The notes under the pieces are model-generated. The model did not search any database, was not told where the DNA came from, and saw only the letters and a list, made by a program, of their open reading frames with translations. This document shows positions 14,691-62,831 of a stretch of 64,000 nucleotides of DNA, one piece after another. The position numbers were made by a program, and so were the translations under genes. This DNA is from a virus: positions 96,001 through 160,000 of the IMG/VR virus record IMGVR_UViG_3300048694_001005; one strand, 5' to 3'. Every line of letters starts with the position of its first letter. The stretch's first letter is position 1.

Positions 14691-15338
14691 ATGAGCAAAA
14701 TCATTGCAGTATGCGGTTGGCAGGGGTCAGGTAAAGACACCATTGCTGACTATCTCGTAAACAACTATGGCTTTAGACGTGACAGCTTTGCCAGTACTCT
14801 CAAAGATGCGGTAAGTGTGATCTTTGGCTGGGACCGTGAGCTTTTGGAGGGTCGTACTAAAGCCAGCAGAGCTTGGCGTGAGCAAGTGGATCAGTGGTGG
14901 GCCGAGCATTTGAACATACCAGACCTAACCCCACGTTGGATATTGCAGCAGTGGGGCACTGAGGTAGGTCGTAGAGGCTTTCACGACAATATCTGGGTAG
15001 CTAGTTTGGAAAACAAACTACGCAAAACCACCGATGACATCGTGATTTCTGACTGTAGATTTCCCAATGAGATCGAAGCTTTACGCAATGCTGGTGCTAA
15101 ACTGGTGTGGGTTGAGCGTGGTGATAGGCCTGTTTGGTACGACTGGGCGGTACGCTATAACCGGGCCAATGATGAGCAGCGTACCATTATGCGCATCGTA
15201 GCCGATCTAGAAGAAAGCATGTTTCGGTACCGGATCCACGAAAGTGAGTGGGCTTGGGTTGGGCATGAGTTTGACTACAACATTGACAACAATGGTAGCT
15301 TGGAAGATCTATACACCCAAGTTCGTGCCATAGTTTAG
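14691..15338 (+). CDS. Deoxynucleoside monophosphate kinase (T4 gp1-like)
   Basis: P-loop GWQGSGKDT; FASTLKDAV; PRWILQQWGTEVGR; VISDCRFPNE; HESE. Confidence 0.9.
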   Translation: MSKIIAVCGWQGSGKDTIADYLVNNYGFRRDSFASTLKDAVSVIFGWDRELLEGRTKASRAWREQVDQWWAEHLNIPDLTPRWILQQWGTEVGRRGFHDNIWVASLENKLRKTTDDIVISDCRFPNEIEALRNAGAKLVWVERGDRPVWYDWAVRYNRANDEQRTIMRIVADLEESMFRYRIHESEWAWVGHEFDYNIDNNGSLEDLYTQVRAIV

Positions 15339-59346: not shown

Positions 59347-59375
59347 TTGACCGCAGGTATAAATAAAGTTATATT
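59347..59375 (+). promoter_or_regulatory. Dual promoter of the tRNA operon (sigma70 with a nested late promoter)
   Basis: TTGACC(59347)-N17-TATATT(59370), with TATAAATA at 59358-65 inside the spacer. Confidence 0.7.
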
Positions 59376-59397
59376 AGATGCACAGTTAAACAAAGAG

Positions 59398-59499
59398 ATG
59401 AACATGAAAACCTATTTCAACAACCAAAGCAATCAGCAAAATCAGAGTGATAATAACTCTGATAGCGCACGGCTTTTGGGTGAAGGATGGGATGAATAA
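59398..59499 (+). CDS. Attenuator leader peptide with a 16-codon Asn/Gln/Ser/Asp run
   Basis: Hand translation MNMKTYFNNQSNQQNQSDNNSDSARLLGEGWDE*; the second ATG (59404) is better spaced from AGAG; absent from the ORF track. Confidence 0.85.
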   Translation: MNMKTYFNNQSNQQNQSDNNSDSARLLGEGWDE

Positions 59500-59517
59500 G
59501 TAACAACAGATTCCAAC

Positions 59518-59552
59518 AAAGACCCCAGAAGCCCAAAGCGACTGGGGTTTTT
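59518..59552 (+). terminator. Conditional intrinsic terminator (attenuator 3:4)
   Basis: ACCCCAG(59522-28)/CTGGGGT(59542-48) plus T run; the 5' arm can instead pair with GGCTTTTGGG(59471-80). Confidence 0.85.
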
Positions 59553-59553
59553 C

Positions 59554-59670
59554 ATTGCTGTATGTGTGGCGCAACGCGGGCGCGGCAGGCACATTAAACA
59601 TCTGTAAAAAGGGCGGCCTGGTGGATGAACTCCCTCTTGTGGGACGAAAAATACCAGCGTAATATTTTGT
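59554..59670 (+). ncRNA. Unidentified GC-rich structured RNA between the attenuator and the first tRNA
   Basis: CTGGT/ACCAG enclosing TCCC/GGGA with purine-rich internal loops; no ORF. Confidence 0.4.
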
Positions 59671-59747
59671 AGGGGTGAGATGCGACGGGAAGCATACCAG
59701 CCTTTGAAGTTGGGTCTTAGTGGGTTCGAATCCCTCCACCCCCGCCA
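59671..59747 (+). tRNA. tRNA-Gln(UUG)
   Basis: Anticodon arm CCAGC-CTTTGAA-GTTGG; TTCGAAT T-loop; encoded CCA; 1-72 mismatch. Confidence 0.85.
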
Positions 59748-59767
59748 AAATGTTAAGTGTTATTTGT

Positions 59768-59854
59768 TCCGGAGTACCCGAGTTGGTAGCAGGGGGCAGA
59801 CTGTTAATCTGTTGCGCGGAAGCGCCATCGCTGGTTCGAGCCCAGCCTCCGGAG
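59768..59854 (+). tRNA. tRNA-Asn(GUU) with a long variable arm, CCA not encoded
   Basis: TCCGGAG/CTCCGGA acceptor; GCAGA-CTGTTAA-TCTGT; GCGC-GGAA-GCGC extra arm; GCTGG-TTCGAGC-CCAGC. Confidence 0.85.
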
Positions 59855-59868
59855 CAAATAACATTTAT

Positions 59869-59944
59869 ACCGTAGAGTCCACCGGGTGGTGATACCTGAC
59901 TGTCTATCAGGTCGCGGCGGGTTCGAGTCCCGTCTACGGTGCCA
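59869..59944 (+). tRNA. tRNA-Asp(GUC)
   Basis: ACCGTAG/CTACGGT; CCTGA-CTGTCTA-TCAGG; CCA. Confidence 0.9.
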
Positions 59945-59950
59945 AAATTT

Positions 59951-60037
59951 GGAGACGTGGCTGAATTGGTAAAAGCGTCGGATTGCTACTCCGAAGACCG
60001 AAAGGTTGCGCAGGTTCGAACCCTGTCGTCTCCGCCA
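59951..60037 (+). tRNA. tRNA-Ser(GCU)
   Basis: GGAGACG/CGTCTCC; TCGGA-TTGCTAC-TCCGA; long variable arm; GCCA. Confidence 0.92.
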
Positions 60038-60074: not shown

Positions 60075-60779
60075 ATGAAGCAAGTTTATGGCTGGTGGTT
60101 TCCTGACTGGGAACAACATTTTCAAGATTATTTCAAAAGCTTTTCTAAACAATGTAAAGAAATTCCCTGCCCCTATCAAAAGGCACAAAGAGATTTTGCA
60201 TTACAATTTGTAAAGAAACATCGAAAAATAATAGATGTAGGCGGCAATGTAGGTACGTGGAGTCATCCACTTAGTAAGATATTTGCAGAAGTTCATGCAT
60301 TTGAGCCGCATCCAGAGAATCGTGAATGTTTTCAGCGCAACATGGAAGCAGTTAAAAACTACACTCTATATCCCTATGCGCTAAGTGAACGCGCTGGTCG
60401 TTTTCCACTCTATATACATGATACTAGCTGCGGTAATATAAGTTTAAACCTAACAGGAGTATTGCAGGGCCCTACTCCAGATATCAGCAAGCCTTCAATG
60501 GAACATATCAAAACTATTGAAGTTGAAGTACGAACCTTAGATAGTTTTAACTTTAGCGAAGTTGATTTTATCAAGATTGATGTGCAAGGGCACGAGTTTG
60601 GTGTGTTGAAAGGTGCCACGGAATTATTGAGGATGCAAAGTCCAGCTTTAGTTATGGAATTAGCCACACGAACACCTGAGGAGATTGCAGAAAAGAATTC
60701 TATCACCCAATGGTTACAGCAGTTTGGTTATGTGTTACGTGGCAATAGAAATAAAGAAACAGTTTACACTAAACAATGA
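60075..60779 (+). CDS. FkbM-family methyltransferase
   Basis: IDVGGNVGTW; HAFEP; IKIDVQGHEFGVLKGA. Confidence 0.9.
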   Translation: MKQVYGWWFPDWEQHFQDYFKSFSKQCKEIPCPYQKAQRDFALQFVKKHRKIIDVGGNVGTWSHPLSKIFAEVHAFEPHPENRECFQRNMEAVKNYTLYPYALSERAGRFPLYIHDTSCGNISLNLTGVLQGPTPDISKPSMEHIKTIEVEVRTLDSFNFSEVDFIKIDVQGHEFGVLKGATELLRMQSPALVMELATRTPEEIAEKNSITQWLQQFGYVLRGNRNKETVYTKQ

Positions 60780-61594
60780 CAGTTAGCTGTTATTTGCAGG
60801 GCACAAGTAAGGGTGACAATATTGTTAGACTCTTTGCTGGTGGGTGTGCTGGCACTTTAGCTCGCACCACAGACTACATACAGACGCGACTGCTACCAAG
60901 TACTCCGGTTTTTCTCTGGGGATGTTTGCGTGGCAGTGATTTAATACTCAAACAATGCCTAGCAACAGGGCATGAATTTTACTATGCGGATAATTGTTAT
61001 TACGGTAACACGGATTTTTTACGTATAACACGAAACGGACTGCAAAACACTAAGTTTATCCAACGCCACGGTGATAGGCTCAGTAATAACCCAGTCAAAA
61101 TTAAAAGTTGGCGTCGCAGTGGTTCACATATTGTGATTTTGCCGCCAACAGAAAGCTTTGCTCAATTGTTTGGCAAGCAAACCTGGGTGCAGGATACAGT
61201 AAATGAATTAAAGCAATACACCGATAGGCAGATCATTGTACGTTACAAGCCCAACGAAACGAAAATAGGCTGGGAAAATGGTTACATGGTAAATGCTGGC
61301 GCTATAACAAGACAGGATGCTACGACACGTAGTTTACAGCAGGATTTAGCTGATGCTTGGGCAGTGGTGGCATTTCAAAGCAGTGCGGTCTGGGAAGCAA
61401 TTGCGCAGGGTGTGCCGGCATTTGTTGATCCCATGAATGCTGCTAGTGTGTTAGGCAATACAGATTTAAGCAAAATTGAAACGCCCGTGTATCCGGATCA
61501 GGAACCGTATTTTAGGCATATCAATTATTGTCAGTTTACAAGAGCGGAGATAGCAAGTGGCTTCGCTTGGCAGATTTTGAGCACAGCGGTATGA
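60776..61594 (+). CDS. Capsule-biosynthesis (KpsS-like)/GT-B-like protein
   Basis: AWAVVAFQSSAVWEAIAQGVPAF; C-terminal CQFTRAEIASG. Confidence 0.5.
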   Translation: MTVSCYLQGTSKGDNIVRLFAGGCAGTLARTTDYIQTRLLPSTPVFLWGCLRGSDLILKQCLATGHEFYYADNCYYGNTDFLRITRNGLQNTKFIQRHGDRLSNNPVKIKSWRRSGSHIVILPPTESFAQLFGKQTWVQDTVNELKQYTDRQIIVRYKPNETKIGWENGYMVNAGAITRQDATTRSLQQDLADAWAVVAFQSSAVWEAIAQGVPAFVDPMNAASVLGNTDLSKIETPVYPDQEPYFRHINYCQFTRAEIASGFAWQILSTAV

Positions 61595-61599
61595 ACGCT

Positions 61600-61723
61600 C
61601 ACTCCTGTGGAGGTCGGATGGGAGTGTCTGGTGCGTGTGGGCGAGCCGACGTCAATCTACATTGCTTCTTTTGATGATAGGCCAGAAAGTGGGTGCAGGG
61701 GGTTCGAATCCCTCAATCCCACC
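61600..61723 (+). ncRNA. tRNA-like RNA with a T-arm and acceptor-like stem but no canonical D/anticodon arms
   Basis: GGGGG-TTCGAAT-CCCTC T-arm at 61698-61714; AATCCCACC can pair with TGGGAGT(61619-25) or GTGGG(61689-93); TCTGG/CCAGA long-range stem. Confidence 0.5.
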
Positions 61724-61740
61724 TCAAATATAAATACGTG

Positions 61741-62190
61741 ATGCACATTACAGAAATAGAAGATCAGGAAGATAAAGTTGGTGAGGCCATGGAGAGTTGG
61801 TTTGAGATGTGGCAACCCAGTAAACAGATACCCATAATCTTATCTGCTCCTGAAGCAAAGGATTTTAAAACAGCTAATGCCGACACCATTTATCGCTGTT
61901 ATGTTTTGACACGGGATGGTAAGATACGTGGTCAAAAGAAGAATTCAAAGGTGGCAGTTTATACCATGGATCAGCGCATGGCTCATGAGTTTTATCATTC
62001 ACTGGACATTGCAAACAAATATATTGTTGTGGCCAAGCAATTCCATCCCAAAGATTTGATACTGAATTTCAGTGCATTTGCTAACAGCAAAGGTCGCAGT
62101 GGTGGCTGGGACGAAAAAGAGTTATGGATGAAACCAACTCCATACTATACTTCAGTGCAGCCCAGCGAAATCGTATTCAGAAGTAAATAA
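61741..62190 (+). CDS. Hypothetical late protein
   Basis: ATG 61741 after TATAAATA 61729; the track start at 61693 lies inside the ncRNA. Confidence 0.6.
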   Translation: MHITEIEDQEDKVGEAMESWFEMWQPSKQIPIILSAPEAKDFKTANADTIYRCYVLTRDGKIRGQKKNSKVAVYTMDQRMAHEFYHSLDIANKYIVVAKQFHPKDLILNFSAFANSKGRSGGWDEKELWMKPTPYYTSVQPSEIVFRSK

Positions 62191-62192
62191 TT

Positions 62193-62284
62193 GGAGAGTT
62201 GGCAGAGCCCGGCTTATTGTACCGCATTGGAAGTGCGGAGGTGCGTTTACGTGCCCGCGAGTTCGAATCTCGCACTCTCCGCCA
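62193..62284 (+). tRNA. tRNA-Ser(GGA)
   Basis: GGAGAGT/ACTCTCC; CCGCA-TTGGAAG-TGCGG; long variable arm; GCCA. Confidence 0.92.
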
Positions 62285-62729: not shown

Positions 62730-62736
62730 GAACAAT

Positions 62737-62805
62737 TGGGGTGAGACTGGGAGTCACACCTGCCTCTGAAGCAGGATGGAGTTGGTTCGAGCCCAACCGC
62801 CCCCG
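62737..62805 (+). tRNA. tRNA-Gln(CUG), CCA not encoded
   Basis: CCTGC-CTCTGAA-GCAGG; GTTGG-TTCGAGC-CCAAC; short D arm; 1-72 mismatch; followed by CCC. Confidence 0.8.
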
Positions 62806-62831
62806 CCCAGTGATTCAAGCTAAATACTGAC

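Follow-up and report, generated by a model that had tools for sequence, protein, structure and literature searches.

A probable leader-peptide attenuator of tRNA genes in a large phage, with two copies dividing the genetic code

Introduction

The leaders trpL, hisL, thrL and ilvL are leader-peptide attenuators, of which thrL and ilvL are multivalent. The pheM attenuator of the E. coli pheST operon provides ribosome-sensed feedback on the machinery of tRNA charging. In pheL of E. coli, fast decoding of the leader leads to termination and a lag of the ribosome to formation of the antiterminator (PMC3082878), a logic equal to that proposed below for a phage locus. As to phage tRNAs, a study on tRNA-cutting defences describes the rescue of infection by T5 tRNAs against PARIS AriB (PMC12409363), in agreement with an initial annotation of the present locus, which had stated that phage tRNAs can rescue infection from host anticodon nucleases. 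Candidate reasons for the large tRNA arrays of phages include compensation of codon usage, replacement of degraded host tRNAs and escape from anticodon nucleases; a sensor wired to an array tells which condition the phage uses its tRNAs for. Here we present a locus of a large phage that is very likely a ribosome-mediated transcription attenuator controlling tRNA genes, together with its paralog in the same genome and its relatives in other phages.

Results and discussion

The phage and its first tRNA block

The window, that is, the whole stretch of 64,000 nucleotides that was analysed, corresponds to positions 96001-160000 in a viral contig of 180,565 bp, whose completeness is estimated at 51%. 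Genes for virion proteins, a tail sheath and a DNA polymerase identify the phage as a large myovirus. Freshwater metagenomes hold DNA near-identical to that of the phage, and a blastn search of 50,697 phage records returned no cultured relative, only matches of the tRNA-Asn to phiKZ-like phages and chance hits. The contig contains 36 tRNA genes, all on a single strand, at genome positions 155671-179334. The first four of these, Gln-UUG, Asn-GUU, Asp-GUC and Ser-GCU (Table 1), had been named in the initial annotation as the tRNAs behind the leader and are indeed there, but the block that they open extends past them: block 1 occupies genome positions 155671-162377, codes for tRNAs for Gln, Asn, Asp and Ser only, and also holds Ser-CGA and a second Ser-GCU ahead of the next attenuator.

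The long variable arm of the tRNA-Asn(GUU) is unusual for Asn, and its best matches are the tRNA-Asn genes of phiKZ-like Pseudomonas phages. Within block 1 there are three ORFs (60075-60779, 60776-61594 and 61693-62190), coding for a methyltransferase (phrog_8156) and two unknown products. Late-type promoter boxes are present in the block at ~60045 and ~61729, and these may transcribe the distal tRNAs apart from the switch described below.

Table 1. Coordinates of the features of attenuator 1 and block 1 (window numbering), and examples of an additional ORF seen in relatives
Feature	Position	Strand	Remarks
sigma70-type promoter (TTGACC, 17 nt, TATATT)	59347..59375	+	promoter match
T4-late-type TATAAATA box	59358-59365	+	inside sigma70 spacer
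Leader ORF, 33 codons + TAA	59398..59499	+	second ATG at 59404
Segment 1	59411..59430	+	pairs with 59472-59491; inner hairpin ~59441-59463
Control run, 16 codons: Asn 6, Gln 4, Ser 4, Asp 2	59419..59466	+	
Segment 2	59471..59491	+	partner is segment 1 or segment 3
Antiterminator core 2:3	59471-59480 with 59524-59533	+	
Intrinsic terminator hairpin (segments 3 and 4) and five-U run	59518..59552	+	z -4.1
Conserved ~105-nt structured RNA	59562..59665	+	H-type pseudoknot, then two-helix domain
Pseudoknot helix P1	59562-67/59589-94	+	
Pseudoknot helix P2	59569-72/59580-83	+	
Pseudoknot helix P3	59585-89/59601-05	+	
tRNA-Gln(UUG)	59671..59747	+	
tRNA-Asn(GUU)	59768..59855	+	long variable arm
tRNA-Asp(GUC)	59869..59944	+	
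tRNA-Ser(GCU)	59951..60037	+	
tRNA-Ser(GGA)	62193..62284	+	distal in block 1; reads single TCT codon of leader 1
tRNA-Gln(CUG)	62736..62809	+	distal in block 1; under ARAGORN default score; cloverleaf fold; reads CAG codons
38-60 aa ORF, example	L148:9059-9223	-	
38-60 aa ORF, example	L055:6307-6486	+	
38-60 aa ORF, example	L062:1085-1237	-	

The promoter and the leader reading frame

The dual promoter of the initial annotation corresponds to a sigma70-type match that carries the TATAAATA box in its spacer. About 33 bp of this promoter region are repeated identically ahead of the second attenuator, and the regions upstream of 28 leaders contain TTGAC in 17 cases and TAAATA in 18. The TATAAATA box marks gene starts in the phage genome, with 28 of 54 genomic ATAAATA sites lying at most 60 nt ahead of an ORF against 4% by chance. 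No match to the sigma70-region-2 family was detected in the 51%-complete genome, and a phage late sigma factor was not found there.

The leader ORF and its 16 consecutive Asn, Gln, Ser and Asp codons occur where the initial annotation had placed them and with the same codon counts; the Ser codons are AGY plus a single TCT. In the six frames of the genome this is the longest run of these four residues, the runner-up being a 10-residue poly-Ser, and its chance per position, computed from the protein composition of the phage, is 6e-11; as the set of amino acids was picked after seeing the run, the fair test is provided by the partition tests presented below. The control run samples six of the seven anticodons of block 1, and among codons 2-7 of the leader there are also ones for Met, Lys, Thr, Tyr and Phe, the tRNAs for which belong to block 2. 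Strain variants, few in number and taken from contigs of DNA runs, include two inside the control run, a Ser-to-Ser change at 59430 and an Asn-to-Ser change at 59441, both of which stay within the same four amino acids.

Rival folds of the leader transcript

The initial annotation had proposed a four-segment logic, in which segment 2 pairs either with segment 1 or with segment 3. The coordinates, the fold with 1:2 and 3:4 and the fold with 2:3 were all recovered, with the qualifications that the U-run is only five long (59548-59552, 53 nt from the stop codon) and that 1:2 alone is weaker than 2:3. When both conformers are folded, a check that had been suggested at the outset, 59380-59560 adopts 1:2 plus the terminator (z -4.7), and 59465-59540, which is without segments 1 and 4, adopts the 2:3 antiterminator (z -3.8); 59502-59560 folds as the terminator (z -4.1), and the protector helix 1:2 is present with a z of -3.3. 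Constrained energies amount to -27.9 kcal/mol for 1:2 and -37.2 kcal/mol for 2:3, so that only the combination of 1:2 and 3:4, at -46.8 kcal/mol, outcompetes the antiterminator. Given that 1:2 by itself is the weaker helix at equilibrium, the default state of a ribosome-free transcript would rest on the order and kinetics of folding; among the homologs, the modelled probability of ribosome-free termination lies anywhere from 0 to 1. The C>T variant at 59430 keeps the pairing of segment 1 as a G-U pair. Segment 3 of leader 1 finds its best partner in its own segment 2, ahead of the segment 2 of other leaders. In a narrow duplex test against shuffles, 2:3 scores p 0.21 for leader 1, where a 13-nt probe cut the helix, and p 0.53 for leader 2, whereas the whole-fragment folds of both leaders did beat their shuffles. 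The hairpin of attenuator 1 is absent from the list of a simple terminator scanner.

The relation of the ribosome to these helices was explored with a thermodynamic footprint model, in which RNA is blocked to 12-15 nt past the A site (an assumed leading edge), the transcript ends before segment 4 and RNA behind the ribosome is barred from refolding. For 19 of 20 leaders, this model releases segment 3 from sequestration only once the ribosome has come to within ~10-13 codons of the stop. In leader 1 the switch point is reached at codons 22-24, where the Asn/Gln/Ser/Asp run ends. A modelled stall at any codon ahead of the switch point frees segment 2; in the leaders with all amino acids, most of the 20 precede the switch point. 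The model agrees with the earlier proposal that a ribosome at the stop codon would cover segment 2 and one stalled in the run would free it.

Relatives found through the downstream RNA

Behind the terminator lies a conserved structured element of ~105 nt, and patterns and a covariance model of this element, made without any leader sequence, served as bait. They retrieved at least 35 further loci, and a leader ORF with a terminator was found upstream at 35 of 35; a tRNA array follows at every one of these loci with enough contig. The element pattern has one exact match per record in the 16 records searched. Among the matches listed, the filter by model R1 kept nine viral loci and none of the 80 screened bacterial-genome loci. 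Other baits were less productive: the upstream gene led to nine loci, none of which has a leader or an array behind it, so that the module is not tied to this gene, and a spacer motif after the stop yielded one true locus (L001) in eight.

All 20 amino acids are represented, within 38-53 codons, in 19 of the 23 complete distinct leaders. From protein windows of the same length, 0.23 such leaders would be expected by chance among the 16 tested, or 0.2-3% per leader. Two complete genomes of 364 kb have a single leader of this kind ahead of the whole array, with 28 or 25 tRNAs. The distance from the stop to the U-run is 52-62 nt in 27 of 28 leaders, where 30-100 nt were allowed, and such an ORF occurs at only two of 133 control terminators; the geometry does not fit at L050. 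The 2:3 duplex has a mean energy of -14.2 kcal/mol in the 28 leaders, versus about -3 for the first 12 codons, and is stronger than shuffles (p<=0.05) in 21 of the 28, with lineage-specific sequences. The homologs are related, and these counts of leaders and loci are accordingly non-independent trials.

The leader frame is under coding constraint, as judged from alignments: all six codons that vary among three close relatives do so synonymously, and of the 53 gaps in an alignment of 15 leaders, 49 have a length divisible by three. The preservation of the decoding tRNA by synonymous changes was also considered as evidence and dropped, every change being a third-position transition.

Some further features of the relatives may be recorded. 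A single tRNA-Met(CAU) often lies just ahead of the attenuated promoter and outside the controlled block (L024, L056, L082, L150), and may be kept constitutive. The array of L173 includes a tRNA called with the anticodon UUA (stop). About one-third of the relatives have a related ORF of 38-60 aa between the terminator and the structured RNA (Table 1), of which no homolog was found in the present genome fragment.

A second attenuator and the division of the code

A second module composed of promoter, leader, terminator and structured RNA is located 7 kb downstream, just past the window (genome 162430-162800, equal to L018:2430-2800). A terminator scan of the tRNA region brought up only one more hairpin of like frame, at genome 162640-162675. 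The initial annotation, which holds for the locus that it described, did not include this second attenuator or the structured RNA. Leader 2 has the same promoter and comprises 39 codons for 18 amino acids, without Asn and Asp; its RNA likewise folds as rival helices. The tRNAs that follow (block 2, ~30 tRNAs) are those for the other amino acids and a Ser-UGA. The first tRNA-like gene of this block is a cloverleaf resembling tRNA-Cys(GCA), whose T arm is atypical (L018:2917-2990, genome ~162917-162990) and which was called by neither ARAGORN nor Rfam. An RNase P RNA was not matched by Rfam at gathering score in this block (L018 ~14720-14980).

Co-variation of leader codons with tRNA sets had been put forward as a check of the initial proposal, and the leader codons do track the tRNA sets. 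When all 969 distributions of the amino acids over two blocks of these sizes are compared, the leaders are fitted best by the one that the genome actually has (exact p 1/969). The match extends to isoacceptors: the AGY/TCT codons for Ser and CAA/CAG codons for Gln in leader 1 are decoded by block-1 tRNAs, and the sole Ser codon of leader 2, TCA, is decoded by the Ser-UGA of block 2. Of the 30 block-2 anticodons, 22 are sampled by the control zone of leader 2. Exceptions to the match are codon 2 of leader 2, which specifies Gln, and codons 3-7 of leader 1 (Met, Lys, Thr, Tyr and Phe). L037, the nearest unsplit relative of leader 2, has kept Asp, Asn, Ser and Gln codons, with tRNAs for Gln and Asn in its block. 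From these comparisons of sequence, the module appears to have been duplicated in this phage, and leader 2 probably shed most codons for those tRNAs that went to block 1. Distinctive of this locus is the division of one genome's code into 4 + 16 amino acids, beside relatives in which it is unsplit.

A different split is seen in an unrelated phage, represented by a 56-kb viral contig (G010) that was reached via L001. It has two leaders with terminators, each with a boxA directly behind the terminator (L299-L301, minus strand). Codons for Thr, Phe, Glu, His, Pro, Ala and Met abound in one leader, which precedes tRNAs for Pro, Glu, Ala, Phe, Thr, His, Met and Arg. In the second leader, codons for Gln, Ile, Asp, Arg, Val and Ser abound, and the tRNAs behind it are for these six amino acids and no others. 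The code is here divided into Pro/Glu/Ala/Phe/Thr/His/Met and Gln/Ile/Asp/Ser/Val, with Arg in both, which differs from the division in the present phage, and the real split is again the best fit, in this case of 792 (p 1/792). The placement of boxA suggests that host Nus antitermination is in use. Sequences of the boxA type are also present inside the tRNA arrays of two complete genomes, G001 and G002 (L302, L305).

The structured RNA behind the terminator

The structured RNA occurs in two copies in the present genome, each between a terminator and the first tRNA, and in at least 37 copies in all, always ahead of tRNA arrays where the sequence reaches. It matches no Rfam family (59562-59665). 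Two-sided changes are seen at 17 of the 22 predicted pairs. The helices P2 and P3 are paired in 95-98%, with a covariation score above that of 500 of 500 shuffles and of all slid controls, in an alignment that is itself fitted to the model. P1, which crosses P3, could be assessed in 23 sequences whose flanks were usable; each of them has five to six pairs, compared with ~2.5 in shuffles, and compensatory variants are seen. A further helix, P4, is misaligned by the model (35% paired), yet it covaries in a MAFFT alignment. A strain variant at 59605 (T>C) converts a G-U pair into a G-C pair.

This RNA does not decide attenuation, since it comes after the terminator on the 3' side, at a distance that reaches ~220 nt in some phages. 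From its position, its best tentative assignment would be a signal for processive antitermination or for processing of the long untranslated transcript; a put-like role in processive antitermination is the leading guess since boxA occupies the equivalent place in the unrelated phage with two leaders, and a function in processing or as a ribozyme would be a further candidate. In rrn operons, boxA is an element in cis that sits close to where a long transcript begins. The same holds for the put RNA of HK022 (PMC9378689), and the structured RNA resembles it in this position, but has no sequence or Rfam similarity to put or to rrn boxA. Genomes that carry the structured RNA can also have boxA sites within the array.

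A model of the switch and its rivals

From sequence, folds, geometry, codon/tRNA co-variation and coding constraint, all of which were computed, we infer translation of the leader, switching in vivo and the trigger along the following lines. RNA polymerase would start at the dual promoter and a ribosome would follow onto the leader. With fast decoding of Asn, Gln, Ser and Asp, the ribosome would move past codon 22-23 and cover segment 2, the terminator would form and transcription would stop before the tRNAs. Should any of these aminoacyl-tRNAs be short, the ribosome would lag in the run and segment 2 would capture segment 3 before segment 4 has been transcribed; with 2:3 formed, the polymerase would read through the structured RNA into the Gln/Asn/Asp/Ser block. 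The paralogous attenuator 2 would act likewise for the tRNAs of the other amino acids, and in the relatives one all-20 leader would serve one undivided array. The codons under test are those that the resulting tRNAs decode, so that the loop would constitute negative feedback on tRNA supply. The phage probably makes a tRNA set only when the matching codons are read slowly.

Provided that the locus is an attenuator, a functional shortage of tRNA, arising from host anticodon nucleases or from demand outrunning supply, is rather likely to be its trigger, and tRNA loss mediated by defence is a plausible case of it. On the same premise, limitation of amino acids is a somewhat unlikely trigger. Amino-acid starvation would, on the modelled switch, flip it too. 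Extra tRNA, however, does not cure starvation, for which reason the match at the level of isoacceptors suits a sensor of tRNA supply over one of amino acids. The all-20 leaders of the relatives suggest a broad sensor of decoding capacity. We tentatively consider an on-demand counter-defence, in which the leader would be a checklist that detects the loss of isoacceptors to nucleases and opens the matching block, the pseudoknot RNA would confer processivity, and duplication would re-partition checklist and block alike.

The same switch might instead have been selected as a sensor of amino acids or nitrogen, its purpose lying in the protein genes of the block or in a re-balancing of charging; Asn, Gln and Asp are tied to nitrogen status, and block 1 does contain protein genes. 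Classical attenuators sense limitation of amino acids (PMC3082878). For such a sensor a match down to the isoacceptor, with AGY and TCT going with block 1 and TCA with the Ser-UGA of block 2, would be superfluous, and the embedded protein genes have late-type boxes of their own. As more tRNA would not relieve starvation either, we consider this reading unlikely.

Very improbable is a codon-blind attenuator of translation stress of the whiB7 uORF kind (PMC10727445), which any slowing of ribosomes would open and for which the codons would be incidental. Almost any stress would open the leaders of most relatives, as these hold all 20 amino acids, and a modelled stall anywhere before the switch point frees segment 2; but the packing of 20 amino acids into 38-53 codons is far from what chance gives, and in two unrelated phages each split leader follows the block that it heads. 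A sensor of this kind may apply to the all-20 leaders, but does not explain the split ones.

The peptide itself could be a functional small protein or an arrest peptide, with a constitutive terminator and with the tRNAs expressed via antitermination by the downstream RNA or a phage factor. The coding constraint is compatible with any functional peptide, many leaders have a short Tyr-Trp ... Asn-Asp-Arg pattern in common, and the conserved RNA adjoins the terminator. Leader 1 and both leaders of the unrelated phage, however, are without this pattern and keep the geometry; the structured RNA is 3' of the terminator and hence unmade when termination is decided; and the 2:3 helix is conserved, all of which makes this alternative hard to credit. 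Sensing of the T-box kind, in which uncharged tRNA would bind directly to the leader codons as specifier triplets, with no ribosome involved, has the terminator/antiterminator pair and codon-anticodon matching in common with attenuation, and is of negligible likelihood given that no Rfam T-box match was obtained at gathering score or E<=5, that the codons lie in an open frame with its stop fixed relative to the terminator, and that indels keep the frame.

Implications

On the attenuator reading, tRNA genes join the targets of classical attenuation, in a loop that feeds back directly on tRNA supply. As a small genetically encoded device, the leader would report on the health of the tRNAs for 4, 16 or all 20 amino acids, and the duplicated module, with two leaders and two blocks dividing the code, offers a natural experiment.

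Comparison with known systems

Several amino acids are sensed together by thrL and ilvL, as would be the case in the phage leaders. The pheM attenuator concerns one synthetase and one amino acid; the phage attenuator would concern the tRNAs themselves and many amino acids. The initial annotation had assigned the locus to the trp/thr/his/pheST architecture, and the structural part of this assignment stood when tested in silico; the locus falls outside the narrow class of attenuators of amino-acid biosynthesis or synthetase genes, for its downstream genes, tRNAs followed by a methyltransferase and unknown ORFs, neither make nor charge amino acids. A literature search, with subscription journals mostly outside its coverage, found no attenuator for tRNA genes, in line with the initial annotation, which knew of no earlier description; PMC10914365, considered as a precedent, is unrelated.

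The defence of T5 by its tRNAs against PARIS AriB likely has its purpose in common with the present system, and the available part of that study describes rescue and no sensor for tRNA genes (PMC12409363). In the whiB7/wblC uORF, the reading frame likewise overlaps the antiterminator and stalling suppresses intrinsic termination, but it responds to antibiotics or general stalling, has a transcription factor as output and shows no match of codons to product (PMC10727445). The pheL-pheA leader of E. coli has a comparable plan: a short leader ORF in which control codons follow one another, helices 1:2, 2:3 and 3:4 that exclude each other, and a U-tailed terminator (PMC3082878). The phage locus would work like such a classical leader-peptide attenuator and is neither an amino-acid-operon attenuator nor a T-box. 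It differs from the attenuators of amino-acid operons in its location in a phage and in its output, which is tRNA genes instead of biosynthetic enzymes, and its leaders differ from theirs in covering from 4 to all 20 amino acids, in their match to isoacceptors and in the paralogs that divide the code.
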